DNA from: a virus
Strand: one strand, 5' to 3'
DNA length: 64,000 bases
IMG/VR virus record: IMGVR_UViG_3300043427_001796
The notes below the pieces were generated by a model. It was not told where the DNA came from. It did not search any database and saw only the letters and a program-made list of their open reading frames with translations. The position numbers were made by a program, and so were the translations under genes. Positions 450-50,700 of this stretch are shown here, piece by piece. Numbering within the stretch: position 1 is the stretch's first letter; the number at the start of each line of letters is the position of its first letter.

Positions 450-3400
450 ATGTCTCTTACAAGACTTGATAATCTGTATTCCAGCAAAACTGGAAAGTAT
501 CTGTATGTCTCTCCCGACGACTTTAACGCTACGGATACATTAGATAACAGAGGAAACTCACCACTCCGTCCATTCAAGACCATTCAAAGAGCATTCTTAG
601 AAGTATCTCGCTTCTCATATCAGCCTGGTGCTAATAATGATCGTTTTGATCAATTCAGCATCATGCTTATGCCTGGTGATCACTATATTGATAATAGACC
701 AGGACTAGTTAATTACAGTATCAATGGTAGTAATCAAAATAAAAATAGATATTACGATGCTGGTAATTTAATTGAATTAAACAGAGAATTTATTGCAAAT
801 GAAGCATATGCAAAGATGCTCAATGCAAATCCTGGATTTCTACCATCTACTGGAACCGTAGAAAATTTTATTAATAATGTTGCTGAAGTAATTGACTCGA
901 TCATTTACAATATTAAATTTGGCGGCAACGATAAAACTTTTGATGCATCTTTAGTATATCAAGATAACGCCACTTTATTTCAAAATGAACAGGCAGAATT
1001 ATTAGAAATTTATGAAAATGCAGCTGAAATTGCTACCTCAATAATTAAGCAAGAAATTATTATAACGTTATATCAAACTACATACACACAATCTTTCGAC
1101 CCATCAATTTCTGTGGGACCATCTGAATCCGGAGCAACGACACCGGATATTCCTTATGGTCAATTAGAAACATGTGCTGATGTTACAAGTGATTTAAATA
1201 CATTATTTGATATTATTGCTTCTGGTATTAATCAAATTTTAGATTTAGGTGATCGCACAGAACCAGAAACTTTTGGTGAACTTCCTATCTTTAATTTTAA
1301 CCAGGCAACTGGACAGTGGGAAGATAATTCCATCATAGATTTAAGAAGTCCAGACAATATCTATTGGAAGTTCAATGCTTCTACTGGTGGTGCAATTGTT
1401 CCTAGAGGTTGCTCACTGGTTGGATATGATCTTCGTAGAACTATTGTAAGACCACTCTATGTTCCTGATCCATCTGATGGAACACAAGAAAGAACATCAA
1501 TATTTAATTTAACTGGTGGTTGTTATATTTGGCAGTTTACAATTAAAGACGGAGACCTCTCTTCAAATTCTCCATTGTATGATTCTGCCGATAAAGTTGG
1601 TAAAGTATATTACCAAAAAGGAAATGTTACTAATTTAGCTGTTCCTGAATATTCACACCACAAAATCTGCATTATGGAATATGCAGAAAATTTTGAATTA
1701 GATGCTTATTATAAAAAAGTTGCCGTTGCGTTTTCAAAATATCAACCAACTATTGATGATCCTGGTGAATTTGATGTATTGGTTCAGGAAAATAGAATTG
1801 TTGGACCTCTTTCGGATACAACTTTTATCGAAAGTATTAAACCAGTAGATACCAACTTAGGTGAACCCAATCAAAAATTAGTATTAAATGTAACAACTAA
1901 AGTTAATCATGGTTATTTTAAGGATCAGTATGTTGCAGTATTAAATCTTGGTTTAGACGAAGAGTTAAACGGCACATTTAAAGTAGCAAGCATTGATGCT
2001 AATAATCCCAAAGTATTCACTTACGAAATTCCTGGAAAGGTAGCAGCTGGATTAGGACTTACAAATAATGCTGTATATACATCAGGTTCCTCACTCAATT
2101 CAAATGCTGTAGTTCAAGCTGAAATTGACTCTGTTGAATCTGCATCTCCATATGTATTCAACTGTTCGATTCGTTCGATCTGGGGTCTATGCGGTATGTG
2201 GGCAAATGGATCCAAGTCAACTGGATTTAGATCCATGGTTGTCGCTCAATATACTGGTGTATCCCTGCAGAAAGACGATAGAGCATTCATTCGCTACGAT
2301 GAATTTACTAACACTTGGAATCAAGCATCGTTAACAGATGCCTTTGCTTCTGTTCCTTATCATGCAAAGGGCGATTCTTACTGGAAGGATGAATGGAGAA
2401 ACTTCCACATTCGTGCTTCAGATGATGCATTCGTTCAGTGTGTGTCTGTGTTTGCTGTGGGATTCTTTGACCACTTCTTGATGGAATCTGGTGGCGACAT
2501 GTCCATCACCAACTCCAACTCAAACTTCGGTAACACTTCACTTCACTCTGTAGGTCATAAAGGATACTCATTTAACCAGGATAAGGGTGGATATATTACT
2601 CATATTATCCCACCTCAGCAAATTGTTGGTGGATATCGCCCTACTATTTTTGGTGATTCTATTAATTCAACTGAAATTCCATACTATCCAATTGATGTTC
2701 CAACTTCAAACGATCCTGGTAATTTTACTCGTCTTTACTTAGGAACCAACGAAGCATATGATCCATCTAAAAAACCAGCCTCAACATTAAGTGGATACCG
2801 ACTTGGTGCTAGACCGGGAGAAAAATTATATGTTGAATTGGAACCAATTACTCCAGGTGGAAATAATTTATTTGAAGCAACTTTAACTCCAACAGGAATT
2901 GAAACGTATAATGTTTCTGTAAATTTCTTAAATCCTACTGGAATTACCATTAATCAGAGAGCACAGGATGCTTCTAATTTAATTGGATATAATAAACAAT
3001 TCATTCAAGATGAAGTGTATGGATATATTACCGCAAAATATCCCGATCTTTTGAATAATTCAAATATTGACATCCTTACATGTAAAAGAGATATTGGTTA
3101 TTATGTAGATGCTGTAGTTAAAGATTTGAGACTTGGGGGAAATGTTAATAGCGTTCAGACAGCAGAAGGATATTTTTCTGCAAATGAATTAATTTACATT
3201 GAAAATGAGTTAAGTGAAACAATTGATGCTCTTGGCGTAACAAAAGATTTTTGCCTCGCAGCAATGCGTAACTGGAATTACCTACTGACTGGATGCAAAA
3301 CTGAAACAAGCAGTAGTATTATTGAAGTCCCATCAACAAAGGGATTAGTTGTTGGTATGAAGGTTACTTCATACTCTTCTTACGATTCATTAACTCAGAC

Positions 3401-6400
3401 GGAACCAACTGGATCTCCAACTGCAACAATTCCACCCGGTTCTTATATTAGATCTATTATTGATGATACAAATATTGAAATTGGCGTAAAAGGATCTTAT
3501 AATTTTGGCGTGGATCCAGGTCAATATTTTAATCCATCCTCACAAACTAAGGTAGCAACACAGGAGTTAACTGGTGCAATTCTTTATTTTACATTAAGAG
3601 ACGAAACTGAATTTACATCATATCCAAATGGACCTGTTGCCGTAAGAGATGGTATTTTCTCAACTGAAAGAACTATCTATGATGATACTATCCCTAAAGA
3701 TACAGTTAATGTATTAAATAATGAAACTGAATACGACGACATTGAAACAATTATTGATGGATATTTTGTAGACATTACAAGTATTTTATCTTCAGATCCA
3801 GAAAATGCTGGTGTCGATAAAATTGAACCAACTACAGACTTCTCGGTTCTTTCTAGGAGAGCAACACTCTTCACTATAGTTGGTGGACAAGCTCACCAAA
3901 TGGAAACAGGAACAGCTGTTCGTCTTTCTCCAAAACCTGCTCCAGGAACTAATCCAGATCCTAGAGTTATTCGCCTACCAAAAGGATTTAATACTAATAC
4001 AACATATTATGTAATTGCTCCAGGAAGAAAAACTTCTCCGGAAGATTTCTCAAGCACCACAATTTTCGATGGATCTGATCAACAGGTCTTCTTACTTGCA
4101 ACAACTTTAGAAAATGCAAAAGCAGGTAATTATATTTACTCTCCAGAAACTGATTCAATAAATCCTGATGTAGTAATTGAAGTAAACAAATATATTTTAG
4201 ATGCACAATATGATTTATATCAATATATAACTTCTGTATCTACAGATGCAGGAACTGGTGTATTAAAAACTTCAGTCTCACACTCATTTGATATTCCTTC
4301 TGACTCTATTGATCCAATTGATCACCAAAAAGTATTCTTTAGACCAATTAATGGATCAAATTTACCTGTAAGAACTATTTCTGTTGCTGGTGTAACTACT
4401 CAAGTAACTTTAGATCCCCAAGATGAATTTTGGGTTAGATATTATAGTCCAAATGAATTTACAATTTATACATCATACGATGATTCCAAAAATGATGTAA
4501 ATCGTGTTGTTTTAAATGGAAATCTTACATTTTTAACATATTCAAATAAGAGATTTTCTCCACTGAGATTTGAACCAAAACCAACTAGTAATCAATCTGT
4601 CAGAAATTCAACTGGACAGTGGTATTTACGTTGTGTGGACGAAATTAGTGATGAAGATAATGAAAATACAAATCATATTTTGTATAGATTTAATTCTGGC
4701 AATGTATATTCCGGACCAAATCCTGGAGAGGTCAGGACATCCGATACATTCTTTGAAAGAGTTAATGATGATAGAATTAAAGAAGATAGAATTTACAAAC
4801 TTAGATATGTAATTCCAAAATATCTAGAGACAGTTAGAGATCCATTAAATGGATTTGTATTAAAAATCAGAACAGACAACAAACGAAGATTATTACCACA
4901 AAAAATTGTACTCAAACCAATTATTTCCGATAGTCACTTAGAGGAAGCTGGGTATTCTTCTTCGTCAATTGCCAAATTTTTAAATAATTCTGGCATAAAT
5001 CCAGATTTTGATAATACAGATGAGCAAATTGGTTGGGATAGAAAAACATATGGGAGTATTATAGAACCTAAATATGATCCATATAGTAATCCAAAAGTTG
5101 TAGAGACTAAAAACGGAAAAATTGCTTTTACTATTCAATCAGCAAAAATTATTTCCCAAGATAATGGAAGCGGAACAAACTTTAGTTACTTAGAAGTTGT
5201 TGCTTTTGACCACACTATTTTAAATCAAGCAATTAAGAATGAAAAATTTACAATAGTTAAAATTGAACCCCCACAGGGTTCAGTTGGAATTTTCTCCGCA
5301 AATGCCACTTCAAATACCAATGGAAATTTAATTCAATGGTCTGGGCATAGTTCTGGCACTGGTTATTTACACGGATATTTTACAACATCTGATAAACCAT
5401 TTACATCAAGTTCTGTAACTAATCAAGATCATTATTTAATAATTAAAAATATTACTGATGGTGAAATCAATTTCAGTAAAATAAATCAAACGACGTTTTT
5501 CCAGGGAGGTTCTACACCTCTTGGATCTACAGTGTTTGCAAAACTTCTAGCAAAACCAGATAGCGTGGGTGATGCAAATGGAAATAGTAAGTCATTAAAG
5601 AGTGATTATCTTTACTCCCTTAAAGGATCAAATGTATTCACTCTAGTGCCCGGCGACATTGTTTCCGATGACACTGGAGCAGAATTTTATATTGATAGTG
5701 TAGAAGATGTTGGAGAAATTGAAGATACATTCTACATTTTTGATATTGAAGAAATTAAGGAAAGAATTCCCGGACAACAAGATGGTATTTACTATCTAAC
5801 TTGTCTGAAAGGAAATGTTTCTCCGTTCCCAACAGGTCCAGGTGTTGGAAATAATTTCAGAAACTTTAAATTCTCGCAACCAGTAGCATACATTTATCCA
5901 CAAAATTACAAAGATGATCCTTTATGGTATGAAAAATTAGATTCTGATTATTATGGTGATGAAATTAATGATCCTCCAGCATCATACTCTGCTGCCGATA
6001 ATTATGTTCATGGATTAGTTACTGTTAACAACTCAAAATTCAGTTCCACGAAGGAAGCAGTAACATTTTTAGTTAATAGTCCAGCACTTAATGAATATGA
6101 ATATGATGAATATGTTGATGTTGCTCCAGAATATTCTGTTGACGCTAGATTGAGGGCACAAGTTGGAAATGCTGAATCTGGATCTGAAGATAGACTCATT
6201 CCAATTAGAGGAACCTCGCTGTTTCCAACAGAAGAAAGACTCTATGTAGAACTTCGTAGACCATCTATTGCTCGTTCTGGAAACCACACCTTTGAGTATC
6301 TTGGATTTGGTCCTGGTAACTACTCAACTGGTTTCCCACTACGTCAGGAAGTTATTCTTACTGATAAGCAAGACTTCTATGCTCAGGCAAAGAGAGAGGA

Positions 6401-9400
6401 TGGTGGTATCGTATTCTACACTGGATTAAACTCCAATGGAGACCTTTACATCGGTAACAAGAAGATTAATGGTATTACTGGTGAAGAATCATTCTTAGAA
6501 TCTGCAGAATTAGTTGGATTTGGCGAAGAAGATGATGATCTTGGATCTGCTTTGGTAACTACGTTTACTTCACCAGTTACATTTAGAGAAAAAATTACTG
6601 TTAAAGGAACTGCGGATTTTTCACAACCAGTTACAATAAGAGTTCAACCAAATGATGCCAAAGAACCAGTTGCTGCTCTGTCAATTCTAAGTCTAGTTGA
6701 TCCAAGTGTTCTTGGTGAAGATCCAACATTAGATAGAACTGCATTTCCGGATGAAAAATTAGGGGATATTCGTTTATCGAAAAATAGAATTAATTCTGCA
6801 ATATTTGCAATTAATCCTAGAGGAAATGGTGCATCGGGAGCTTCTGGTCAAGATTATTCAATCAGGACTCACTATAATTTCCAGGAAAGTGGGGGATCTC
6901 CATCAAATACAACTCCAGAGCAATCTCCGGAAATTTATTCACCTACAAATTTAAATTCAAATAAACTATTTTCAGATCAAGATGTTTATTATGGAAATAC
7001 TGGAAATCAACCTATCCCCGGTGATATACTATTTAAAGGTAAAGAAGTAGGTAAATCCGGATCTTTAGGTTGGATTTATGCCAATACTTTTGAAATTATT
7101 CCAAATTCATTGATTCAAACTGTAGCAACTCCAAAAATTAATGATGCAACATTAAATTTAGAAGTTGGAACTGGTGGCGGAGAAGGATACACTGCAACTA
7201 ATCTGATTCGTTTAATCTGGTCTGTATCTGGTGGAGTTGGTGGATCTCCCATCACAAATAGAGAATTAAATCTATCATATGGTCTTACTTTAGATTCTAT
7301 TATTCGCACCATTAATGTTGATGGTCAAGAATTGGAACAAAGATTTAATGGAAGATTTACAATTCACGAAGATACTTGGGATATTGATGGCGAATTTATT
7401 GATATTGAAGTCAATGGATTAGTTACATTTGATTTAGTAGAAAATTGGAATGCGGTTGGAATTGGACAGGGTGCTCAAGTATCTGTTACCAATTCAAACT
7501 GGAAAGAACTGGGAGTTATTGGTTCTGAATCAATTAGAACCTTTACTTCAACACTTGGAGATTATAGAGTAGGCATTAACACAGTTGCTAGATCACCTCA
7601 TAGTGCCTACAGTAACTCTTATGTTGACTCGGCAACAACTGATCCTAGAGCAAATCTTGACGTTGTTGGTAATGTTTTTATTACTGGTAAGGCAGTTCCT
7701 GATTATAGAAGTCAGTCTAATCCTTCTAATAGAGTTGCACAATCATTAAATAATGCATTTGTCCTTGGTTACAATTTCCTCAATTCTACTGATACTTTAA
7801 TTTCGCAAAATGCTGCTACATTCAGAATAGCAACTACAGATGCAACAACACCTGGCACTACTTATCAAAGTGGCGGCAGAGTTGGAATCAACACTCAATT
7901 GAGCGACCTTGATAGAAATTTTGTAGTCAAAGGAAATGCTAGAATTACTGGAGACTTCTTATTTGAAAATGATATTGACATTAATGGAGGAGGTGGAACT
8001 AACACTGCTGATGTAAGAACTAGTATTACTACTGGAACTTTCAATTTCATCTCAAATAGTGGATTTGTTGGAACAGCAAATCTTACAACTTGGGCAGAAG
8101 TAGTTAATTTTGCCAGCAGAGCTTCTACAATCGCAATTGGTAATGTTGAATCCACAACTCAGGTTATCAATATTGGTAATCTTGCTGCCACACAAACAAT
8201 TGATATTGGAAATACCTCGGATACATTCACTATTACGCTAGGAAACGCTAGCACAACTTCTGCAGTATCTAGAGTTAATATTGGTGGAGCATACAGCAGA
8301 AATCAATCATTGAGCTTTACCACAATAAAGACAAAGCAAACCAATATTTGGGGAGATCTGTCAATTGGATTAAACAAAGCATTTAGTGATACATTAGATG
8401 TTACTGGATCTGCTGGCACTGTTAATTTCTTTAGTAATTCTGGAGCAACCTCAACATTAAATTTTGCAACAAACGCAGCACTTGTTACTATGGGTGCTCA
8501 GGGTGGAACAACAACTATCCGCAATAGTTTGACGGTTGATGCAACTCTAAGTGTAAAAGGAAATTCTATAGTTGTTGGTGGAACAGCAGCATTTTCATTT
8601 AATGCAACACGATCTAGATTGGGATCAACTCAGACAACACATACAGGAACACCATCCGGCATTCCTGCTGATAAAAATGTTGATTTTGTTATAATTACAA
8701 CTACTACAAATGTGTTGGATACTGCTGGTGCAGGAACTTGGGGAGGAACTTTCTTCCAGCAAGCAATTCCTACCTATACAGCAGATGATGGGACAGCACT
8801 TGCTGCTTTAACTGGAAATCAATACTATTTACCAATTGTTAATGCACCAGTTGGTATTTCGGAAGGAAATGATCTTTTAATTGATACTGCAGTTTCTGGT
8901 TCTAGTCACCCTGAAATTGTTAGAGTTTCTATAGGAGGATTGAGAAGAGTTAATGCTTCTCCATATTATCTTATTGTTGAGAGACAACCATACGGAACAT
9001 TCTTACCTACAAGAACTGATCACCCAGACGCAACTACAATTAGAAAAGTAATTACGTCATTTGATAGCACTTGGTTAACTTCTAACGTTGACGGAACTGG
9101 AACAACCGATGTAGTCTCTCTTGCTGAATTTGGTGGAGAACTATCACAAGGAAGTTACTTATTCCTGTCTAGAAATACTTCTGGAACTACAGGAGAAGCT
9201 ATATTAGTTGGAGCATCCACATCAGCAATTAATAAAAAGTTTCAGGTTTATAACGGTGCAAACGTCTTAAAATTTGAAATTGATACAATTACTGGTGCTA
9301 CCTTAATTAGTGATAATATTACTAATGGAGGATTGACGGTTTATGGACCAATTGATTTTAATGGATCTTTAAATGTTGACGGAAATGCAACATTTAATAC

Positions 9401-10229
9401 GCCAAATAATTTAACTATAAATGGCGGAAACTTCATCATTAACGATTCTGCAGGAACTTCCAATAAATTAACGCTTACTAATTCTACTGGAAATCTGTTT
9501 ATTTCTGGCGACCTGACAGTTGCTGGAAATGACATTAGTTCAAGCACAAATGTTGCTTTAACTTTATCTGGCGCAAATGTTACTGTTGCTGGAGATCTAC
9601 AGATCAATGGAAATGATATTAAATCCAGCACTGGTGCTACAGTTCTTAGTCTTAGTGCTAATGATGCAACATTTGCTGATAATGTAACAATTGGGGGAGA
9701 CCTAACATTAGATGGTGGCGACTTTACTATTAATTCTGGTGGTATCGAAAAATTTGCTATTAACTCTACTGGATCTATTGATTTTGCCGGAATCACTAAT
9801 TACATTACAAATACTGGAGGATTTAAGTGGGTATTCATTAGCACTGATTCAAATAGTGAAGCATCAATTGGACCAAGTGAACTTTTAAAATCAAATACAA
9901 ATTATTTCGTTAGACCTTCTGGATCCAATGCTGCCTTGATATTAAAACTACCAACAACAGCACAAACTGGAGATATGATTAGAATCGTTGACGTTGGAGG
10001 AAGTTTAAAATATAATACACAATTGGTTCTCAGAGCACCATCTGGTGTTGCAATACAGGGAGATACAACAGGAACAAATATTGGTCTTACTTCAGGAATA
10101 TATAGTGGTGGGGAATTAATTATTAATACGCCAAATGCTGCATTTGGACTTATCTACGCAGGTGCTACTGATGGAGATGGTAATTCAATTCCATCTTCAA
10201 ACAGAGGGTGGCATTTAATGGAGATTTGA
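450..10229 (+). CDS. giant virion structural / tail-fibre-like protein (3259 aa) with two phycobiliprotein-like helical domains and C-terminal beta-helix repeats
   Basis: Long ORF under a late promoter; N-terminal YLYVSPDD...GNSPLRPFKTIQRA typical of cyanomyovirus structural proteins; G/T/S-rich C-terminus with GDLTVAGND-type repeats. Confidence 0.85.
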   Translation: MSLTRLDNLYSSKTGKYLYVSPDDFNATDTLDNRGNSPLRPFKTIQRAFLEVSRFSYQPGANNDRFDQFSIMLMPGDHYIDNRPGLVNYSINGSNQNKNRYYDAGNLIELNREFIANEAYAKMLNANPGFLPSTGTVENFINNVAEVIDSIIYNIKFGGNDKTFDASLVYQDNATLFQNEQAELLEIYENAAEIATSIIKQEIIITLYQTTYTQSFDPSISVGPSESGATTPDIPYGQLETCADVTSDLNTLFDIIASGINQILDLGDRTEPETFGELPIFNFNQATGQWEDNSIIDLRSPDNIYWKFNASTGGAIVPRGCSLVGYDLRRTIVRPLYVPDPSDGTQERTSIFNLTGGCYIWQFTIKDGDLSSNSPLYDSADKVGKVYYQKGNVTNLAVPEYSHHKICIMEYAENFELDAYYKKVAVAFSKYQPTIDDPGEFDVLVQENRIVGPLSDTTFIESIKPVDTNLGEPNQKLVLNVTTKVNHGYFKDQYVAVLNLGLDEELNGTFKVASIDANNPKVFTYEIPGKVAAGLGLTNNAVYTSGSSLNSNAVVQAEIDSVESASPYVFNCSIRSIWGLCGMWANGSKSTGFRSMVVAQYTGVSLQKDDRAFIRYDEFTNTWNQASLTDAFASVPYHAKGDSYWKDEWRNFHIRASDDAFVQCVSVFAVGFFDHFLMESGGDMSITNSNSNFGNTSLHSVGHKGYSFNQDKGGYITHIIPPQQIVGGYRPTIFGDSINSTEIPYYPIDVPTSNDPGNFTRLYLGTNEAYDPSKKPASTLSGYRLGARPGEKLYVELEPITPGGNNLFEATLTPTGIETYNVSVNFLNPTGITINQRAQDASNLIGYNKQFIQDEVYGYITAKYPDLLNNSNIDILTCKRDIGYYVDAVVKDLRLGGNVNSVQTAEGYFSANELIYIENELSETIDALGVTKDFCLAAMRNWNYLLTGCKTETSSSIIEVPSTKGLVVGMKVTSYSSYDSLTQTEPTGSPTATIPPGSYIRSIIDDTNIEIGVKGSYNFGVDPGQYFNPSSQTKVATQELTGAILYFTLRDETEFTSYPNGPVAVRDGIFSTERTIYDDTIPKDTVNVLNNETEYDDIETIIDGYFVDITSILSSDPENAGVDKIEPTTDFSVLSRRATLFTIVGGQAHQMETGTAVRLSPKPAPGTNPDPRVIRLPKGFNTNTTYYVIAPGRKTSPEDFSSTTIFDGSDQQVFLLATTLENAKAGNYIYSPETDSINPDVVIEVNKYILDAQYDLYQYITSVSTDAGTGVLKTSVSHSFDIPSDSIDPIDHQKVFFRPINGSNLPVRTISVAGVTTQVTLDPQDEFWVRYYSPNEFTIYTSYDDSKNDVNRVVLNGNLTFLTYSNKRFSPLRFEPKPTSNQSVRNSTGQWYLRCVDEISDEDNENTNHILYRFNSGNVYSGPNPGEVRTSDTFFERVNDDRIKEDRIYKLRYVIPKYLETVRDPLNGFVLKIRTDNKRRLLPQKIVLKPIISDSHLEEAGYSSSSIAKFLNNSGINPDFDNTDEQIGWDRKTYGSIIEPKYDPYSNPKVVETKNGKIAFTIQSAKIISQDNGSGTNFSYLEVVAFDHTILNQAIKNEKFTIVKIEPPQGSVGIFSANATSNTNGNLIQWSGHSSGTGYLHGYFTTSDKPFTSSSVTNQDHYLIIKNITDGEINFSKINQTTFFQGGSTPLGSTVFAKLLAKPDSVGDANGNSKSLKSDYLYSLKGSNVFTLVPGDIVSDDTGAEFYIDSVEDVGEIEDTFYIFDIEEIKERIPGQQDGIYYLTCLKGNVSPFPTGPGVGNNFRNFKFSQPVAYIYPQNYKDDPLWYEKLDSDYYGDEINDPPASYSAADNYVHGLVTVNNSKFSSTKEAVTFLVNSPALNEYEYDEYVDVAPEYSVDARLRAQVGNAESGSEDRLIPIRGTSLFPTEERLYVELRRPSIARSGNHTFEYLGFGPGNYSTGFPLRQEVILTDKQDFYAQAKREDGGIVFYTGLNSNGDLYIGNKKINGITGEESFLESAELVGFGEEDDDLGSALVTTFTSPVTFREKITVKGTADFSQPVTIRVQPNDAKEPVAALSILSLVDPSVLGEDPTLDRTAFPDEKLGDIRLSKNRINSAIFAINPRGNGASGASGQDYSIRTHYNFQESGGSPSNTTPEQSPEIYSPTNLNSNKLFSDQDVYYGNTGNQPIPGDILFKGKEVGKSGSLGWIYANTFEIIPNSLIQTVATPKINDATLNLEVGTGGGEGYTATNLIRLIWSVSGGVGGSPITNRELNLSYGLTLDSIIRTINVDGQELEQRFNGRFTIHEDTWDIDGEFIDIEVNGLVTFDLVENWNAVGIGQGAQVSVTNSNWKELGVIGSESIRTFTSTLGDYRVGINTVARSPHSAYSNSYVDSATTDPRANLDVVGNVFITGKAVPDYRSQSNPSNRVAQSLNNAFVLGYNFLNSTDTLISQNAATFRIATTDATTPGTTYQSGGRVGINTQLSDLDRNFVVKGNARITGDFLFENDIDINGGGGTNTADVRTSITTGTFNFISNSGFVGTANLTTWAEVVNFASRASTIAIGNVESTTQVINIGNLAATQTIDIGNTSDTFTITLGNASTTSAVSRVNIGGAYSRNQSLSFTTIKTKQTNIWGDLSIGLNKAFSDTLDVTGSAGTVNFFSNSGATSTLNFATNAALVTMGAQGGTTTIRNSLTVDATLSVKGNSIVVGGTAAFSFNATRSRLGSTQTTHTGTPSGIPADKNVDFVIITTTTNVLDTAGAGTWGGTFFQQAIPTYTADDGTALAALTGNQYYLPIVNAPVGISEGNDLLIDTAVSGSSHPEIVRVSIGGLRRVNASPYYLIVERQPYGTFLPTRTDHPDATTIRKVITSFDSTWLTSNVDGTGTTDVVSLAEFGGELSQGSYLFLSRNTSGTTGEAILVGASTSAINKKFQVYNGANVLKFEIDTITGATLISDNITNGGLTVYGPIDFNGSLNVDGNATFNTPNNLTINGGNFIINDSAGTSNKLTLTNSTGNLFISGDLTVAGNDISSSTNVALTLSGANVTVAGDLQINGNDIKSSTGATVLSLSANDATFADNVTIGGDLTLDGGDFTINSGGIEKFAINSTGSIDFAGITNYITNTGGFKWVFISTDSNSEASIGPSELLKSNTNYFVRPSGSNAALILKLPTTAQTGDMIRIVDVGGSLKYNTQLVLRAPSGVAIQGDTTGTNIGLTSGIYSGGELIINTPNAAFGLIYAGATDGDGNSIPSSNRGWHLMEI

Positions 10230-15638: not shown

Positions 15639-15976
15639 TGGAAAATTTAAGAATTTCTGATCTAATCAGCGATTATTGCATCAAAAATAGAGTAAGTTTA
15701 GTCTATTATGAAATTAAATATTCAACGATAGAAGAAAGGGAAAAGATATGTGATTTCTATGACGATAAAGTTGATATGGAATTTATCAATGCAATGAGAA
15801 ATGATGATGATTGTTTTTTCTCTTTCTCTAATGCATTAACAGCTGTTGAAATTGCGGAAATGAATTTCCCAACCAAGAGAGAAATATTGGGAATGACCAA
15901 TGACTTACTTTTATATGTTTTTTGTTGTGTTTATGATGAAAATGGTAATTTCCTCTGGGATAACTCTTTAGAATGA
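15638..15976 (+). CDS. hypothetical protein
   Basis: Start/stop overlaps with both neighbours. Confidence 0.75.
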   Translation: MENLRISDLISDYCIKNRVSLVYYEIKYSTIEEREKICDFYDDKVDMEFINAMRNDDDCFFSFSNALTAVEIAEMNFPTKREILGMTNDLLLYVFCCVYDENGNFLWDNSLE

Positions 15977-16467
15977 TAAAAGCTTTTGAAAATGTATTTT
16001 GTGACCAGCAACGTGATGAAATACAAAATTATTTGAGATCATCTTCCTGGCGTTATGGACATGTCAGTAAATCGGGAGATGACAACAAGAAATTTTGGAT
16101 TATGAATCTAAATGATCATGATTTTTTCACTAAACATTTGTTTGGATGCATAAAAGATCTAATTCAAATGGATGTTACTCTCTTGAATGTTTATGCTAAT
16201 GGTCAAACATACGGACAATCTGGATCGTGGCATTTAGATTCTAATTCAAGCAATGAATATACTTTTTTGTTTTATGCAAATCCTCACTGGAACGTTAGTT
16301 GGGGAGGGGAGACGGTGTTTAATTTAAATAATGCATTATATTATTTTATACCAAAACCAAATACTGGACTATTATTTCCTGCAAATATTTGGCACTATGC
16401 AAAGTCTCCAGAAAAAGATTTTTTTGATCTGAGAACTACAATAGCTTTTAAGCTGAAATTAGCGTAA
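15973..16467 (+). CDS. 2OG-Fe(II) oxygenase (prolyl-hydroxylase-like)
   Basis: WHLD, YANPHW...WGGET, FPANIWH, LRTTIAFK. Confidence 0.88.
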   Translation: MIKAFENVFCDQQRDEIQNYLRSSSWRYGHVSKSGDDNKKFWIMNLNDHDFFTKHLFGCIKDLIQMDVTLLNVYANGQTYGQSGSWHLDSNSSNEYTFLFYANPHWNVSWGGETVFNLNNALYYFIPKPNTGLLFPANIWHYAKSPEKDFFDLRTTIAFKLKLA

Positions 16468-16474
16468 TGGGATA

Positions 16475-16533
16475 GTGTGCAGTCTGCAAACTGGCACACA
16501 CCCCTTGACGTGGGCGGCAAATGACCCTATAGT
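16475..16533 (+). promoter_or_regulatory. early promoter cassette 1: palindromic box + TTGACG/TATAGT
   Basis: GTGTGCAG-N8-CTGGCAC, 7 nt, -35, 17 nt, -10. Confidence 0.85.
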
Positions 16534-16555
16534 ATGAAGACAAACGTGATTCGTT

Positions 16556-17809
16556 ATGAACCTCCGTCCCCACCAGCAACGTGCTCTCGCCGCTATGGAG
16601 AAGCATAACACGGGTCGTATTATCATCCCTACGGGTGGTGGTAAGACTCTGATTGCTATTGAGGATCTCAAGCGTCGTCTGCTCGCTTCTGATGCCCCTA
16701 AGACTGCTGTAATCGTTGCTCCCCGCATTCTGCTTGCTAACCAACTCTGCGAAGAGTTCTGGTCTGCTCTGAATGGTGATGTTCATGCTGCTGTGGGTCA
16801 CGTTCACAGCGGTGAGACTGATCACTTTCACAGCACCAAACCTGCTGTAATTCGTGGTTTCAACGATGTCACTCTGAACGCTGGTCTTCACTGCCTGCTG
16901 TTCACCACCTATCAGTCTCTCAATCGTATTGTTGAGAGTGAGATTGATGTGGACTTCGTTTACTTTGACGAGGCACATAACAGCGTTCGTCGTGATTTCT
17001 TCCCGACTGTTGCTGACGTTGCTGGTAACGCCACCAACGCTTATTTCTTCACTGCTACGCCTAAGTATCACAACAATCCTTATGCCAATGGTATGAACAA
17101 TACCATGGTGTATGGTGAGGAACTGATCAGTGTGCCTGCTCCTGAACTGATTGAGAACGGCAGCATTCTTCCTCCTACCATCAAGTCGCACAAAGTAGAC
17201 TTTGCTCGCCAAAAGTCTCTTGCCGCAGCTGACAATGACAAGCAAGTTCTGCTTGACATTATTGACGAACTGGATGACGAACATGCCCAGAAGATTCTGG
17301 TTGCTGCTCCTAACACTAAAGTTCTGTGGCGTCTGCTGACCAAGACTGATGTGATCTCTCACTTCACTGCTCATGGTTACAACGTGCTTCATATCACTGC
17401 GAAGCATGGTGCCTATGTCAATGGTCAGAAAGTTGGTCGTGAGGTGTTTTTTAACACTATGACCAAGTGGGGCGAAGATCCTACTATCAAGATGATCATC
17501 TTCCACTACAGCATTCTTGCTGAGGGTATCAATTGCCCTGGTCTCACTCACACCATCCTGCTGCGTTGTCTGCCCGTCATTGAGATGGCACAGACCATTG
17601 GGCGTGTGATTCGTCTTGACCGCCGTGATGCTGCTGATATTGCCTCTGGCAAGATTGCTGCTGGTGCGTGTGAGTTCTATCGTAAGAAGACTGGTTTCGT
17701 GACTGTGCCTGTGTTCGCCAACTATGGTCAGCGCACTGAGAAGCGTCTTCAAGCGATCATTGAGAACATCTTCATCAAAGGTATCGCTGCTACCGAATAT
17801 TCCATCTGA
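16556..17809 (+). CDS. superfamily 2 (DEAH / type III Res-like) helicase
   Basis: LRPHQ Q-motif, PTGGGKT, DEAH, FTATP, LAEGIN, QTIGRVIR. Confidence 0.92.
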   Translation: MNLRPHQQRALAAMEKHNTGRIIIPTGGGKTLIAIEDLKRRLLASDAPKTAVIVAPRILLANQLCEEFWSALNGDVHAAVGHVHSGETDHFHSTKPAVIRGFNDVTLNAGLHCLLFTTYQSLNRIVESEIDVDFVYFDEAHNSVRRDFFPTVADVAGNATNAYFFTATPKYHNNPYANGMNNTMVYGEELISVPAPELIENGSILPPTIKSHKVDFARQKSLAAADNDKQVLLDIIDELDDEHAQKILVAAPNTKVLWRLLTKTDVISHFTAHGYNVLHITAKHGAYVNGQKVGREVFFNTMTKWGEDPTIKMIIFHYSILAEGINCPGLTHTILLRCLPVIEMAQTIGRVIRLDRRDAADIASGKIAAGACEFYRKKTGFVTVPVFANYGQRTEKRLQAIIENIFIKGIAATEYSI

Positions 17810-17819
17810 TTTTATCACC

Positions 17820-18014
17820 ATGACATACTACAAACCATATACACCTGAGTGGAATCGTCAGAGGTATCTGCGAGAAGCACTTTACACATACATTGAGGAT
17901 GGTGTTGATACTGATACTATTCTTCAAGAGATCTGTGATATTGTTTATGAACGCTCTGAGCAATCATATCAGGACTTTGCTAAGTGTAATGATCTAGCAG
18001 AACGATTTAAGTGA
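17820..18014 (+). CDS. hypothetical cyanophage protein
   Basis: ORF from ATG 17820 (MTYYKPYTPEW...). Confidence 0.7.
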   Translation: MTYYKPYTPEWNRQRYLREALYTYIEDGVDTDTILQEICDIVYERSEQSYQDFAKCNDLAERFK

Positions 18015-19259: not shown

Positions 19260-19526
19260 ATGGAAAAGACTTATCAATCTGTTCGCAAAGATCGTCTTGT
19301 TGATGTCATTGGTGATTATCTCACTGATGAAGAATGTTCAGCAGAACAATTCTATAACGAATTAGTTGGTGAAATTGATACCTGGATTGAATATCATCGT
19401 AAATTCCTTGAGAAGGCTAAACTTGTCAAGAAAATGGTAAATGGTCATCGCCCACTGACTTTTGAAGATGACACCATCACCAACTATAGTCCACAATATC
19501 TTGCTGAAGATATTCTCGCGCTGTGA
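19260..19526 (+). CDS. hypothetical protein
   Basis: ORF; likely start at ATG 19260. Confidence 0.7.
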   Translation: MEKTYQSVRKDRLVDVIGDYLTDEECSAEQFYNELVGEIDTWIEYHRKFLEKAKLVKKMVNGHRPLTFEDDTITNYSPQYLAEDILAL

Positions 19527-20143
19527 AAAACCTCTGGAAAAACTATAAGCAAGCAATTCACGATACCTTCCCAGAACTCAAACAAGTAGAACTCTGGAAT
19601 CACTGGGAAGGTAAGATGACGATGGATGCTTATGTCTATCGTGGTGGTCATTTCATGCGAACTAGAGAAGCACTGGTCCGCAATGATACTACAGACATTT
19701 ACAATCATGTGCTGTATCCCTACACTGGCAAGAATACACCATGCTTCAGTGTAGACTTGATGGGATTCTTTGAGAACAAAGTGATCATCGTATTTGATTT
19801 CCAGCATCCTGTAGAGAACTATAAGTTCAGTGTTGGTGATAGACTACCCAAAGACACTGGTAAATATAGATTTTTTGAGATGGGAAATCATTTTAGTGAG
19901 CATATCTTTGTTCGCAAATGTACAATGTCAGAGGTTGATAACTATCTGGATGATTTTGTATCTTATTTGTCAGTATACAAGGAAATAGTTTATAACGATG
20001 CTCCTTTTAGTATAGATACATCAGCATACAAAGATTTTGACTCATATATGCGTAAACTTGACCCCATTTCTGGGTATATGAATAACATTTACGACAAAGA
20101 TAAGTCTAAATCATTTGTTGAAGAGTTCCTATTCATTTACTAG
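19523..20143 (+). CDS. pebS: phycoerythrobilin synthase (ferredoxin-dependent bilin reductase)
   Basis: DIYN.VLYP.TG...PCF..DLM....KVIIVFDFQHP, GKYRFFEMGNHFS, DFDSYM..LDP, FLF; closely matches phage PebS as recalled. Confidence 0.93.
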   Translation: MKNLWKNYKQAIHDTFPELKQVELWNHWEGKMTMDAYVYRGGHFMRTREALVRNDTTDIYNHVLYPYTGKNTPCFSVDLMGFFENKVIIVFDFQHPVENYKFSVGDRLPKDTGKYRFFEMGNHFSEHIFVRKCTMSEVDNYLDDFVSYLSVYKEIVYNDAPFSIDTSAYKDFDSYMRKLDPISGYMNNIYDKDKSKSFVEEFLFIY

Positions 20144-20689: not shown

Positions 20690-21124
20690 ATGACCAGCGC
20701 CACCTTCGATCAATTTGTTGCTCAGCAAGACGCTAAGAATACCATTCAATTGAATGTTACTAAGTGGACTTGGGAACTATGTGAGGCACTGCGTCAGAAC
20801 TTTATTGATTACTCTATTCGGTCTCACGCACTTCGCACATCTGATGTGGAGTATCATGATGCCTGTATTGCTGAATTGAGGCAAGGTAAGTGTAACTATG
20901 ACTTCACTTTTGAGTCGGGTCGTAAGTATCACAAGATCATCATGACTGCGGATGGTTCCCGTTCTGTTCACGCATTTGTGGACAAGAAGACTGGTGAAGT
21001 CTATAAATCTGCCTCCTGGCAGTCTCCTGCTAAGGGTGTTCGTTACGATCTCCGCGTCATTAGTGAGCGTGAATGGTTGTTTGAGAATGCTGACTGGGCA
21101 GGTTCTTATCTGTATGCCCGTTGA
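20690..21124 (+). CDS. conserved hypothetical phage protein
   Basis: SD GAGGA; GRKYHKI...VHAFVDKKTGEVYK.ASW..PAKGVRY. Confidence 0.85.
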   Translation: MTSATFDQFVAQQDAKNTIQLNVTKWTWELCEALRQNFIDYSIRSHALRTSDVEYHDACIAELRQGKCNYDFTFESGRKYHKIIMTADGSRSVHAFVDKKTGEVYKSASWQSPAKGVRYDLRVISEREWLFENADWAGSYLYAR

Positions 21125-25560: not shown

Positions 25561-25995
25561 ATGATTCAACTCAATCAAGTTTATAACTTTGAGTGCCCAG
25601 CAGCATTTGGAACTCTCTCGCAAGAGCGTGTGAATAAACTATTCACTGATGGTCGTCGTGCATCTGGTTTTCTTGAATTGCAACTTGAAGAATGGTTTCC
25701 TGAATTGATGTTTGTTGATGGCAAGGGATACGATCATGTAGATCCCAATGGTGTCAAGTATGATGCCAAATGTTTCACTAAAGGTGGTGCCAAATTCTGT
25801 GCATCCAAATATCTTGGTGTTGGTCGGTCTGTTGATATTGATGAGCATCGTGAACATTCTATGAAGATGATCTACATCTTCTGTGATGTGGTAGAATTCC
25901 CTAAGGTTCGCGTTGTATTCAAACGTGGATCTGATCTGACTCAATATACTAAGGGTTCTATTCCATTTGGTGATCGTAATGCTCTATTTGCTTGA
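25561..25995 (+). CDS. putative PD-(D/E)xK endonuclease
   Basis: E...GYD...YDAK catalytic-like pattern; overlaps the methyltransferase gene. Confidence 0.55.
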   Translation: MIQLNQVYNFECPAAFGTLSQERVNKLFTDGRRASGFLELQLEEWFPELMFVDGKGYDHVDPNGVKYDAKCFTKGGAKFCASKYLGVGRSVDIDEHREHSMKMIYIFCDVVEFPKVRVVFKRGSDLTQYTKGSIPFGDRNALFA

Positions 25996-33437: not shown

Positions 33438-33608
33438 TTGAAAACTATTCGCGTTCAGGTTGAGACTAACGATGGTTGCACTACCATTTGGTATGAAAAG
33501 TCCAAATTAAAGAATCCCACTGAATCTATCTGCAAGCGTGTTAACGAACAGCTGCAGGGTTTGAATATTAAACGTGTGGAAGTCTCGCTGTCACCTGCTA
33601 CCGTGTGA
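33438..33608 (+). CDS. small hypothetical protein
   Basis: Probable TTG start; IRVQVETNDGCTTIWYE. Confidence 0.65.
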   Translation: MKTIRVQVETNDGCTTIWYEKSKLKNPTESICKRVNEQLQGLNIKRVEVSLSPATV

Positions 33609-33662
33609 CAGTCAGACAAGTGGCACAAACCGCTTGACTTTCTCCCCGATCCGGTCCATACT
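33605..33662 (+). promoter_or_regulatory. early promoter cassette 10
   Basis: GTGACAG-N8-GTGGCAC; TTGACT-17-CATACT. Confidence 0.9.
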
Positions 33663-33687
33663 GTATACATCAAACAAATTTCAGCAA

Positions 33688-39913: not shown

Positions 39914-41710
39914 GTGCCTTACGCTCAAATCAATAATCTAGATTATTCTCAAATTAAAGAGAATTTAAAAAATTATCTAAAATCTCAATCAGAATTCACT
40001 GATTATGATTTTGAGGGTTCTGCTTTAAGTAATATTCTTGATGTTCTTGCATATAATACGTATTATACTGCATTCAACACCAATTTAATTGCAAACGAAT
40101 TTTTCATTGATTCTGCTACTTTAAGAGACAATGTTATAAGAATTGCGAAGCAACTCGGATATAGACCTAGATCGAAAGTTGCTTCAAGATCAAAAATTAA
40201 TTTTACATCAACAATTGTAAGTCCAATACAACCTTCAACATATACATTAAAAAAGGGCACTGGATTTATTACAAATTACGATAACAGCTTATACAATTTT
40301 GTAGTTGTTGATGATGTGACAGTGCCTGTAGAAGAGGGTGCTGCTGTTTTTACCGAAGTTGATATATTTGAAGGTAACTTAGTTACTGAGTATTTTGTTT
40401 ATAATAAAACAAAAATTGATAACAGAATTATATTGTCAAATCCACAGATTGATGTTTCCAGTATTAGAATTAATGTATATGAATCACAATCTTCATCTGT
40501 AAAAAATATTTTTAATGTTGCTGAAAATATTTTAGACGTTGATTTTTCTACAAATATATTTTTTGTCGAGGAAGTTAGTGACGAGAAGTATGAAATTATA
40601 TTTGGCGATGGTGTATTTGGAAGACAACTAGAGGACGGTAATTACATTGAAATTTCATACTTAGTTACAAATGGATCGGTAACAAACGGAGTAGAAAATT
40701 TTAGATTTAATGGTCTTCTTGTAGATGGCAGCAATCAGAGTTATCAAAATAATGTTGTAATTAATAATGTTCTAACTCCAGCATATGGTGGTGCTGAAAT
40801 AGAGACTACCGACAATATTAAGTTCATTGCTCCAAAGTATTTTGGAACTCAAAATAGAGCAGTTACGGCAGAAGATTTTAAACCAATAATTTCAAAAATT
40901 TACCCAAATGTTTCTGATATCATTACCTATGGTGGTGAGGATGAACAACCTCCAGAATATGGAGTTGTAAAAATTATAATTAAACCTAAACAAGGAGAAA
41001 AAATAACCAGTGTAACCAAGAATCAAATCGAAGAGGCTTTGAAACCATACATGGTTGCATCAGTAAGACCTCGTATTGTTGATCCCTCTGTTTTGTATAT
41101 TGAAATTTCTAGTAACATTTATTATAGCAAATTAAAGACAAATTCAACTAGAGATCAAATTAAAACTGAAGTCATAAATTCTATTTCTGATTACATTGAT
41201 AAATCAGACACAGAAAAGTTTTCTGGAAAATTAAGATATAGTAAAATTAATAGTGCTATTGATAAAGCAGATAGTTCTATAGAATCCAATGAAACATCTT
41301 TCACTATGAGAAAAGATGTCTTTCCAATATTAAATTCTAAGACATTTTATGAAGTATGTTATCAAAATTCTTTCGATAAGGACTGTGATGGTGCAACTGT
41401 ATACACCACTGGATTTGTAGTTTCAGAATATCCAAATTATACTGTATATCTCAAAGATGTGGATGGAAAAATGGTCCTATATAGGGTAGGAAATGATGGA
41501 AATGATTATATTATTAACTCTGACGTTGGGAATGTGAATTACATTTCAGGAGAGATCAAATTATACAATTTGACTATTATAAAGGGTTCTTACCCAAATA
41601 ATAAAATTGAATTTAGAGTAGTCCCTCTCAAACGAGATATTTTTGCTTTTCGTGAGCAATATTTGAAGGTTGATATTGAGAAAAGTACCTTTATCGCAAA
41701 AGCAGAATAG
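39914..41710 (+). CDS. gp6: baseplate wedge subunit gp6
   Basis: FTDYDFEGSALS.ILDVLAYNTYY, QNRAVTAEDF. Confidence 0.95.
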   Translation: MPYAQINNLDYSQIKENLKNYLKSQSEFTDYDFEGSALSNILDVLAYNTYYTAFNTNLIANEFFIDSATLRDNVIRIAKQLGYRPRSKVASRSKINFTSTIVSPIQPSTYTLKKGTGFITNYDNSLYNFVVVDDVTVPVEEGAAVFTEVDIFEGNLVTEYFVYNKTKIDNRIILSNPQIDVSSIRINVYESQSSSVKNIFNVAENILDVDFSTNIFFVEEVSDEKYEIIFGDGVFGRQLEDGNYIEISYLVTNGSVTNGVENFRFNGLLVDGSNQSYQNNVVINNVLTPAYGGAEIETTDNIKFIAPKYFGTQNRAVTAEDFKPIISKIYPNVSDIITYGGEDEQPPEYGVVKIIIKPKQGEKITSVTKNQIEEALKPYMVASVRPRIVDPSVLYIEISSNIYYSKLKTNSTRDQIKTEVINSISDYIDKSDTEKFSGKLRYSKINSAIDKADSSIESNETSFTMRKDVFPILNSKTFYEVCYQNSFDKDCDGATVYTTGFVVSEYPNYTVYLKDVDGKMVLYRVGNDGNDYIINSDVGNVNYISGEIKLYNLTIIKGSYPNNKIEFRVVPLKRDIFAFREQYLKVDIEKSTFIAKAE

Positions 41711-47700: not shown

Positions 47701-50700
47701 TCAACTATAACATTTGCATCGGCTCCTCTAGGAGAAAGAATTTCTGAAGGTCAGTCTTTACAATCCGATCCATTTATCGGAAGAGTTTTTGGATACAGAA
47801 CCGAAGAAGATAATCAAAAATATTTTAAAAAGATAAAAAATATTTTCCAAAGAAGTGGAATATGGTTGGATGCTGCCAATCAAATACATTTCAATAGAAA
47901 TTTTATTGTTGAGGAAACATTTGGATATTTAAATAATAAGTATCCAAATCTTGAATTTAATACAGAAAAGTGCAAAAGAGACATTGGATATATTATAGAT
48001 TCGTTTGAACACGATTTAAGATTTGGCGGAAATTTAAAAACTGTCACATCTGGAAATTTTTACTTTAATGCTGCAGAAGAACTTCAATTTATTAATGATG
48101 AATTAGAAGAAACAAAAGATGCTTATAAGTATGCAGCAAAATTATGTGCCGCAGCTATCAGAAATTGGGATGTGGCATTTATTGATGATCCAAATACATT
48201 AGATCCTGAATTTGAAGTTATAGTTTCCGCCAATAGTGATGTTATTACTGTTCCATCTACTTTTGGAATTGTTGAGGGAATGTATGTTAGTTCTGGATCT
48301 CAATTTCCATCTGGAACTAAAGTGATAGAAATTATGAATGATACTAATGTCAGAGTTAGTTCAAATTCCTTTGCTAACATAACAGACGAAGAAGTATTTG
48401 TATTTGACATTCCCATTGGTCAAGTGGTATTGCCACCTGTAGGAAGCACTGAGGTTGAGTTCAATTATAATGGCGTTATTATACAAACAGACGCAGAACT
48501 GATAGTTTCTGATGGCATAACGGTTTCGATTACAGCACAAATTGCTAAATTGAGGCAAGTTAGATTTTCATTGAGTAGAATTAATACTGGAAAATATGTA
48601 GACGCATCGAATTTAATTTATGTCAACCGTGAATACATAATTGACGAAACCATTTCATATATTAATTTAACTTATCCGGGATTTTCATATCCAAGTGAGA
48701 AAAAATGCAGGAGAGATATTGGGCATTTAATTGACGCAGTAATTTATCATCTTAGATATGGTGGCAATAATAGACTAGTTGATTATGCAGAAAAATACTA
48801 TTTTGCAAATAAATTAAATTACATTAATGAAGAACTAACTCAAACTGTAGTTGCCTTTGAGTATTCTATTGCCTTAATGTTGGATGCTATAGAGAATCCA
48901 GGATCTCCTTTCCAGACAGTAAATTATGTTGTGGCATCAGACGATGTAAATCCACTAGATTTATGCATCGAAGTTAAGTCAACTATTAATGCGTATAGAG
49001 ATCTTTATACCTTTATTTTAGAAAATGGACCTAATTTAATTGAAAGAAATTTTGGAGAGGTTCAGAAGTCTGGAAATTATACAGAATTGTTAACTTTTTC
49101 AAATTATAATTTAATCGATGACGAAGAGTTACAATTATCGACTCAAATTAATGGTGTTTGGTTTGCTTCAGAATGTGCAAATGTTATTTCCAGTCTTTAC
49201 AATTTACAGCAATCTTTAGATCAAATTTTAACTTCTGGAGTTGATTCTGTAGATATCTCTGGTCCAGATTATTTTAACGGTGAAACAAAGCAGTTTGAAT
49301 TATATACAGATTCAAATGCTATACTAAAAACAGATCCAGACGAAAATTTATTAATTTTCATAAATGGAGTTTTACAAAGAACGACATCTTATAAAATTTT
49401 AAGATCGGAAAATCCACAACAAACTGATATTATTGAATTTACTGAGGCACCAAGATGGGATCAAAATGAAGCACAATTATTATTGAACCAGGGGACTGCA
49501 GTTGATTATTTTTATGGGTTCTCAATTGGAAATTATCAAAGAAGAACCATAGATAAAACTTATTTTAAATATGAATCTAGTTATAGAATTGTTTCCGAAA
49601 ATGGATATTCTATTGATCCAATATTTGATTCTAGATTCCATTTAGTTTTCGTTGATGGAGTTTTGCAAAGAAACAAAATTGATTATAATATCGATCAAAC
49701 TAGAATAATATTTAAAGAGAAATTAAATTACTATACTCCAGCAACTGGAGAAAACTTACTTTCAAATGTTGACATCATTTCTTTCTCTGGTGAAAAAAAT
49801 AAAGATACTTTTATAGGATTTGATTTTCAACCAGGATCTTATTCATTAACAGCAACATTTGATGTTTATGATGACGATAATTCACAAGATAACATTTACG
49901 AAATTATTACCCAGTGGAATGCTCCTTCTAGGTCTTATCCTATAGACATTATTGACGAATATGGTCCTGTTGGACGAGTATTGAATTATGTTCAAGTAAA
50001 TTCTCCTTACTCAGGCGTAAGATTTACAATCATTACCGATGTAATTAGAGAAGTTATACAAGAATCAATAACATTACGTAAAGATTTGCCTTATGTAAAC
50101 GACATTACGCTATCAATTGCTGCTCCTTTAATAATAAGTGGAAATTTTGTAGTTCCTGGACCTGGAGAATATATTGTTGGCGCAATAAATGTAACATCAG
50201 GGTCTACCGTGACTGTTCCTGAAGATACAACTCTTATCTCTATATCTAATATCACAGATGTAAATTATGAGACAAACAATGATGGAGAAAAAATTCTTAG
50301 AAGAGCAAACGCTGTTCATATTCATGATGATAGAAGAATCGCAAATAAAAACTGGAGAATTCTTAACAAATTAACAGCTAATATATTGGAAGGTGATAAG
50401 ATAAAAGTTGATGGTGAAGAAGAATACAGAGATGTATTAAAATTACCTGACATAGTAAAAACTACTCAAAATAATTTATATACGCCAGTATCCAAAAAAA
50501 CATATGGTAATATTATAACTTCTGTATCAGATAAGAAGCCTAAAGGTAGTGGTCTTAGAATTAACCCCATATTGGATTCGCAAGGAAGAATTGTTTCTTT
50601 AGATTATGGAAAAGATGACTACATAAGATCAAAATTATTAAATCTTCCATCCAGAAAAATTGGACTATATCCAAAAGAAATTTATGTAGACTTTTTATCT

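Follow-up and report, generated by a model that had tools for sequence, protein, structure and literature searches.

A phycobiliprotein-like module with a conserved Cys/Arg/Asp triad, and possibly a bilin, in the giant tail-fibre proteins of cyanophages

Can a host photosynthesis fold become part of a virus particle, and if so, would it still hold its pigment? Phycobiliproteins serve cyanobacteria, red algae and cryptophytes as cellular light-harvesting proteins, and the question of their presence in a virion is raised by a 64,000-nucleotide stretch of viral DNA, IMG/VR record IMGVR_UViG_3300043427_001796 (the window, by which we mean this whole stretch). Its DNA belongs to a marine T4-like cyanomyovirus and is closest to that of the Synechococcus phages Sf-FR1, S-RIM44 and Syn1 (only ~66–72% identity in the stretch), and near the start of the window lies the gene for a giant tail-fibre protein, P0002. 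An earlier note, made from the sequence alone, had proposed that P0002 contains a phycobiliprotein-like domain with an intact site for covalent attachment of a bilin. We find that this domain is, with high confidence, homologous to phycobiliproteins and has their globin-like fold, and that the residues corresponding to the chromophore triad form a strongly conserved putative functional site; that the site holds a bilin is a more tentative proposal. The translation quoted in the earlier note agrees exactly with that of the plus strand at 2967–3790, which lies in frame in the open reading frame (ORF) 450..10229, with the codon for Cys878 at 3081–3083. The parts of P0002 on which the argument depends are these (aa, amino acids; AF2, AlphaFold2; HMM, hidden Markov model; pLDDT, predicted local distance difference test):

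450..10229, plus strand: giant tail-fibre protein gene P0002 (3,259 aa), which carries the module of interest (ORF list, PHROGs, DNA relatives)
738..1082, plus strand: degenerate N-terminal copy of the module, aa 97–211 (BLASTP self-comparison, E 2e-7; HMM domain)
2940..3326, plus strand: phycobiliprotein-like module with counterparts of helices B, E, F and G, aa 831–959 (HMM domain 831–959; AF2 helices at model residues 17–120; hhalign to CpcA 39–139)
3081..3092, plus strand: C878-K-R880-D881, aligned with Cys84-x-Arg86-Asp87 of phycobiliproteins (all sequence comparisons)
3276..3686, plus strand: beta-rich insertion separating the G-like from the H-like helix, aa 943–1079 (AF2 strands at model residues 124–260, pLDDT mostly 84–95)
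3735..3791, plus strand: closing helix of the module, aa 1096–1114, aligned with the C-terminal (helix-H) end of phycobiliproteins (AF2 helix at model residues 277–295)

The sequence relationship is carried by profiles. When an HMM built from 145 units of the module was searched against 177,635 distinct PDB sequences (E<=10), 35 of the 36 matches were phycobiliproteins, with CpcA (8iml_A, E 3.4e-4) the best among them; the alignments span phycocyanin alpha residues 39–104 and place the C-x-R-D of the module on Cys84-x-Arg86-Asp87 and its GGN on GGT. CpcA sequences for further comparison were retrieved via a 67-residue fragment from the PDB alignment. By hhalign, an alignment of repeat units matched CpcA over 55 columns (probability 94.7%, E 6.3e-8), and an alignment of 63 orthologues of the P0002 region matched it over 90 columns (91.3%, E 9.5e-7), continuing through the F- and G-like helices, with Tyr908 placed over the conserved CpcA Tyr110/111 and T-I-D-A-L-x-x-x-K over Y-V-E-A-L-K-Y-I-K. 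Among Pfam families, only PF00502, the phycobiliproteins, recurred for single copies, in 17 of 63 orthologous segments and 9 of 142 units (E<=0.01, best E 5e-6); its gathering score was exceeded by one tandem protein, P0007, in which the match begins at profile position 35, and a precomputed PF00502 match accompanies most orthologues in the databases, S-PM2d218 and the S-H9-2 tail protein among them. At the level of the module family, the sequences are thus related to PF00502, and C878, R880 and D881 were aligned with Cys84, Arg86 and Asp87 in every comparison. The motif of P0002 reads TCKRDIGYY…GGN, and the identities with phycocyanin given in the earlier note hold against phycocyanin alpha sequences: common to both are KC-x-RD-[IV]-GYY, a GG 18–19 residues past the Cys and, one helix earlier, N-x(n)-Y-x-K-[FY]-P. 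Pairwise BLASTP between the P0002 copy and a CpcA reached E 2e-4, a similarity beyond chance.

In a six-frame translation of the 64 kb, C.RD.GY occurs only twice, each time inside a copy of the module. Four copies are present in the window, two in P0002 and two in a second giant protein, P0003:

41716..52704, plus strand: giant baseplate-wedge/virion structural protein gene P0003 (3,662 aa; phrog_4406, phrog_2885), with two module copies
47866..48183, plus strand: module copy 1 in P0003, aa 2051–2156, CKRDIGY (motif scan, HMM)
48562..49065, plus strand: module copy 2 in P0003, aa 2293–2403 (folded unit aa 2283–2450), uninterrupted, CRRDIGH (HMM; AF2)

Copy 1 of P0003 has a beta insertion as in P0002; copy 2 is without the insertion and has His at the position of Asp892. 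In the N-terminal copy of P0002, the residues C, R, D and Asp892 are replaced by F, N, N and N, and the GGN turn and the Tyr are retained; this copy is a natural 'site-dead' control within the same protein.

What fold do these sequences adopt? Two AF2 models were made, one of P0002 aa 820–1135 with 63 orthologues (pLDDT 81, predicted TM-score (pTM) 0.83) and one of the uninterrupted P0003 unit, aa 2283–2450, with 142 units (pLDDT 84, pTM 0.81). The P0002 model consists of six helices, then the beta domain, then the closing helix, as the earlier note had anticipated in describing a helix-H-like segment after an inserted beta domain. Foldseek against the PDB returned mostly phycobiliproteins for this model (probability 0.99–1.0, target TM 0.45–0.59), and VIA-align gave Z-scores of 12–13.2 to phycobiliproteins, for example 12.7 to 3v57_B with a root mean square deviation (rmsd) of 2.0 Å over 136 residues. 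Because these structural alignments extend from model residues 4–16 to residue 295 and, on the phycobiliprotein side, as far as the chain's C-terminal end (residue 177–184), the closing helix is taken as the helix-H end and the beta domain as an insertion between G and H. The P0003 unit is all-helical; its top 50 Foldseek matches are phycobiliproteins throughout (probability 1.0, TM 0.57–0.68), and in a VIA scan of 48,161 PDB representatives, independent of Foldseek, the top seven were again all phycobiliproteins (Z 13.2–15.8, rmsd 2.1–2.8 Å over 124–148 residues), led by phycoerythrin beta (Z 15.8, 2.5 Å, 148 residues), with far-red allophycocyanin at 14.6 and ApcE at 14.1. Feature and shape searches of the ESM Atlas gave only weak globin-like RsbRD_N leads. 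Since helical folds attain middling Z-scores easily, we place the weight on the agreement of sequence profiles, ranking and residue-level placement of the motif. Both models contain the phycobiliprotein arrangement of helices A/B, E, F, G and H, and a Y-like helix may also be present. The AlphaFold and Foldseek comparison that the earlier note had asked for thus places phycobiliproteins first, and its structural claim, a globin/phycobiliprotein-fold domain within a tail-fibre protein annotated as virion-structural, stands by AF2, Foldseek, VIA, HMM and hhalign alike.

The setting is that of the phage adsorption apparatus. All PHROGs assigned to P0002 are tail fibre or short tail fibre (phrog_4527, E 0; phrog_529, E 3e-278; phrog_38839; phrog_5342), the DNA relatives of the gene in Synechococcus phages carry the label 'tail protein / short tail fiber', and short-tail-fibre and tail-collar proteins are encoded downstream. 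Orthologues of P0002 are 40–69% identical across the module region. The P0003 gene is immediately preceded by a gp6-like baseplate wedge gene (39914..41710). By full-length similarity and by their tail and baseplate neighbours, these proteins belong to the fibre and baseplate giants of T4-like cyanophages (phrog_4527, phrog_529, phrog_4406). The inserted beta-rich domain is kept in 63 orthologues with a conserved G-x-x-x-G-M motif and could be the part that contacts the host.

How much of the chromophore site has been kept, and is it kept by selection? An exhaustive phmmer search with P0002 aa 830–1000 against 1.84 billion representative proteins matched 854 proteins, nearly all of them giants of 1,000–6,400 aa with up to 34–35 matched stretches each; from the best 150 of these and the two window proteins we extracted 1,598 units, which in the tandem proteins repeat with a period of ~155 aa, up to 35 times. 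The units are ~25% identical, yet Cys878 (97%), Arg880 (96%), Asp881 (99%), Asp892 (98%) and Tyr908 (99%) are near-invariant, and Asn848, Gly883, Asp887, GGN896–898, Glu/Gln920 and Thr924 are also well conserved. All five invariants are retained in 1,432 of 1,533 units. Where the Cys is lost, the Arg and Asp tend to go with it: Asp881 is lost in none of 1,487 Cys-bearing units vs 14 of 46 Cys-less ones, and Arg880 in 44 of 1,487 vs 22 of 46, whereas Asp892 is lost independently of the Cys (p = 0.18, a test in which the phylogenetic non-independence of the repeats inflates the p-value). In 22 of the 46 Cys-less units the Cys is replaced by Phe, Trp or Tyr, a pattern that would be expected if a cavity were being filled and is hard to square with a tightly packed small residue. 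In 15 units Arg880 has become Asp and, along with it, Asp892 has become Asn (pattern C-d-D-n-Y). Being 12 residues from each other along a single helix, these positions are too distant for direct intrahelical contact; a ligand or an adjacent chain might mediate the coupling, or the units may merely share ancestry.

The Cys of C-x-R-D is the only one in 115 of 142 tandem units, and no other column reaches 8% Cys. Since a unit has a single Cys and no further Cys column is conserved, an intradomain disulfide is ruled out for the family; a disulfide-bonded Cys was among the refuting outcomes listed in the earlier note. A thioester or ester cross-link to Glu/Gln920 is unlikely, the column being about half Glu and half Gln. 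Among the P0002 orthologues in particular, 94% have a Cys just before the closing helix (motif P-E-C; Tyr1095 in P0002, column 357), and two further columns are partly conserved as Cys, C935 (48%) and C949 (81%), so that subgroup-specific disulfides are possible there. The single Cys, the coupled loss of the triad, the aromatic substitutions and the site-less N-terminal copy of P0002 lead us to predict a functional site at the triad.

The module is not confined to this window. By tblastn, 399 records among 50,697 phage genomes match it, and all are cyanophages (325 Synechococcus, 59 'Cyanophage', 14 Prochlorococcus and 1 marine single-cell virus), with the matches in genes whose annotations are tail fibre, baseplate wedge or virion structural protein; five such places, and hence at least five module copies, are found in S-PM2. 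Named matches in the BFVD structure database are Synechococcus phage proteins or come from uncultured Caudovirales. Long tandem arrays of 8–35 units occur in P0004, P0007, P0008, P0009, P0015 and P0074, encoded on metagenomic contigs of the T4 superfamily (L001, L002, L003, L004). Genes neighbouring the arrays resemble tail proteins of Caulobacter/Brevundimonas jumbo, Methylophilales, Pelagibacter and Prochlorococcus phages, and on one tandem-array contig other than L003 the clamp loader is about equidistant from Pelagibacter, Stenotrophomonas and cyanophage homologues.

How does the module compare with known systems? Its nearest phycobiliproteins are CpcA by sequence and, by predicted structure, phycoerythrin beta, far-red allophycocyanin and the bilin-binding domain of ApcE. 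Like phycobiliprotein alpha and beta chains, it has a globin-like helix arrangement that can be aligned to the C-terminal helix, N...Y-x-K-[FY]-P in helix B, K-C-x-R-D-[IV]-G-Y in helix E with GG 18 residues after the Cys and a Tyr beyond that turn, and, within the G-like helix, [TY]-[IV]-[DE]-A-L-x-Y-x-K. Phycobiliproteins are free chains of ~165 aa, whereas the phage module is embedded, singly or in tandem, in fibre and baseplate proteins of 3,000–6,000 aa; in P0002 it carries a 137-aa beta domain in the G–H loop, and it has invariants of its own in Asp892, Glu/Gln920 and Thr924. A phycobiliprotein domain inside a large multidomain protein has a precedent in the core-membrane linker ApcE, itself among the structural matches, although ApcE is a cellular phycobilisome component. 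The engineered smURFP is likewise among the matches of the models. ApcE and smURFP are both precedents for covalent bilin attachment without a lyase; the bilin Cys of ApcE is at a different position, and the phage module has the canonical Cys84 position. Globin-like sensors (the N-terminal domain of RsbR, globin-coupled sensors, pXO2-61 and photocobilin) share the superfold (Z 9–12.8), but they score lower than phycobiliproteins, lack a sequence-profile relationship to the module and have no C-x-R-D.

In our preferred explanation, the domain at 2940–3791 descends from the phycobiliprotein family; it is built into a giant tail-fibre protein and carries a beta domain in its G–H loop. It belongs to a large family of modules, found alone or in long tandem arrays in the fibre and baseplate giants of phages, and selection would hold its chromophore triad, as Cys878, Arg880 and Asp881, together as one functional site. 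As a proposed mechanism, the module, made in a bilin-rich infected cyanobacterium by a phage that itself has a gene for a PebS-like bilin synthase, would bind a linear tetrapyrrole in the cleft between helices B, E, F and G, with Asp881 facing the pyrrole nitrogens, Arg880 facing a propionate and Cys878 forming the thioether. The fibre would thereby carry pigment. Context speaks for the proposal in that the module is found only in cyanophages among sequenced phages and that the window holds a PebS-like gene, separate from the fibre:

19523..20143, plus strand: PebS-like ferredoxin-dependent bilin reductase gene (PF05996, E 4.6e-15; NF009720)

The closest annotated DNA to this gene is phycoerythrobilin synthase of P-SSM2, P-HM1 and P-HM2. 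As called, the ORF has 206 aa and a GTG start, against 240 positions in the NCBIfam model, and its real start may differ. The position of the module inside tail-fibre and baseplate giants argues against an (alpha-beta)3 disc assembly of the phycobilisome type. Binding of a linear tetrapyrrole in the manner of phycobiliproteins is a possibility that we would put a little short of probable; taken as a whole, the proposal of a phycobiliprotein-derived fibre module with a selected triad and a bound bilin is one that we hold tentatively, as the best explanation at hand.

Our caution has several grounds, all of which weigh against the bilin proposal or its foundations. Neither P0002 nor the 274-aa region matched any Pfam family at E<=1, and phmmer with the single P0002 sequence found no phycobiliprotein in the PDB; the relationship is visible by profiles and structure only. 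Confident sequence similarity covers only helices B to E, reaching G in one comparison, and the remaining residues that line the pocket are not demonstrably kept in the sequence comparison. Structural alignments begin at about chain residue 14–34, and model residues 1–16 of P0002 are unstructured and of low confidence, so that the N-terminal X helix, which builds the alpha-beta monomer in phycobiliproteins, appears to be missing from the module. Other globin-like sensor domains, at Z 9–12.8 in the VIA scan, are only modestly below phycobiliproteins. The conservation statistics draw on non-independent repeats and on HMM detection that is biased to units bearing the motif. Additionally, gp23, the major capsid protein, of tandem-array contig L003 is 68–71% identical to that of the jumbo phages Vibrio phage 2.275.O, Sinorhizobium phage Phosso and Pseudomonas phage PA5oct; with a capsid protein so near to those of phages of heterotrophs, bilin-rich hosts are not assured for the whole family. 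Finally, most phycobiliprotein sites require dedicated lyases, and no bilin lyase was found among the window ORFs scanned.

Which other explanations might fit? An unrelated helical repeat could by chance or convergence have arrived at a short C-x-R-D-I-G-Y-Y motif as in phycocyanin. It would suit this account that the single P0002 sequence has no Pfam or PDB match, that the pairwise BLASTP between the P0002 copy and a CpcA aligns just 20 residues, and that helical bundles gain middling Z-scores with ease; but the profile search singles out phycobiliproteins across the whole PDB, hhalign gives 91–95% probability over 55–90 columns, two aligners rank phycobiliproteins first for two independent models, which match along the full chain, and the motif positions coincide residue for residue. 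We therefore think coincidence highly improbable and regard chance resemblance as essentially excluded. A more serious contender is a borrowed fold that has lost its pigment. As such, the module would be a rigid building block or spacer binding no tetrapyrrole, with the Cys, Arg and Asp, together with Asp892, Tyr908, Glu/Gln920 and Thr924, forming a buried polar network or a contact between modules or chains. Arrays of up to 35 units with a ~155 aa period are typical of structural repeats; the module has its own invariants, Asp892 being absent in phycobiliproteins, with Tyr908, on its conserved CpcA counterpart, looking fold-related; relatives occur in phages near PA5oct-like jumbo phages of heterotrophs; and the 15-unit change of Arg to Asp with Asp892 to Asn hints at a protein–protein or intramolecular contact. 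A full-text literature search, with subscription journals outside its coverage, also yielded no report of pigmented cyanophage particles. It is difficult, however, to reconcile a purely structural role with a Cys kept at 97%, since almost no Ala, Ser or Val replaces it, which is rare for a buried structural position, and the replacements are mostly bulky aromatics. The unit offers this Cys no disulfide partner, a free thiol on an extracellular particle calls for explanation, and the residues retained are exactly those of the chromophore triad, which are lost jointly while Asp892 stays. Loss of the pigment is a live alternative that we find doubtful as matters stand.

It is also conceivable that the site is functional but serves something other than a host bilin, such as biliverdin, another tetrapyrrole, a metal or a host surface molecule, or that the lone Cys links chains or modules covalently during fibre assembly. 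The statistics of site conservation apply here just as they do to a bilin, members whose phages may infect non-cyanobacterial hosts would depend on a ligand of wider occurrence, and the structural neighbours include heme-binding globin sensor domains and, in the Foldseek list, the biliverdin-binding smURFP. Set against this, the invariant columns hold no His or other typical ligand of heme or metal, the single Cys of each unit could not be paired off in a three-fold fibre, and among cultured phages the module is limited to cyanophages. We consider this group of explanations unlikely.

Returning to the proposal that the module binds a bilin, what might a pigment do on a fibre? Light-dependent adsorption has been documented for the cyanomyoviruses S-PM2, P-HM1 and P-HM2 (PMC2984593), and a pigment-bearing fibre would be a candidate mechanism for it. 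In the most far-reaching form of the idea, the virion would be a light sensor: modules of the fibre and baseplate would take up phycoerythrobilin or phycocyanobilin covalently, aided by the PebS-type synthase of the phage, and light absorbed by these pigments would shift the conformation of fibre or baseplate. We think this improbable; if true, it would be the missing mechanism for light-dependent adsorption in cyanomyoviruses such as S-PM2 and P-HM2. If the site binds bilin at all, virus particles would carry pigment; it would become testable why some cyanophages adsorb only in light and why Prochlorococcus phages keep bilin synthesis genes; and the module could be a source of compact, lyase-independent bilin-binding tags. 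At minimum, a photosynthesis fold of the host has clearly been taken into the structure of the virion, where a phycobiliprotein domain family with its triad under strong selection is found as a building block of the phage adsorption machinery. The family is large, with thousands of copies in metagenomes, and has no Pfam model of its own; in the literature search described above, no phycobiliprotein-like domain was described in phage structural proteins.

Other features of the window concern the region between the two structural blocks. A minus-strand ORF of 457 aa (16448–17821) overlaps nearly all of a plus-strand helicase gene (ResIII/DEAD, 16556–17809); the stretch is higher in GC, and the minus-strand ORF is probably no more than a spurious shadow. 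The genes between the blocks also include those for a 2OG-Fe(II) oxygenase (15973–16467), a DUF7717 protein (20690–21124), an N6/N4 DNA methylase (25967–26758) and a Kyanoviridae Gp96 family protein (33574–34002).

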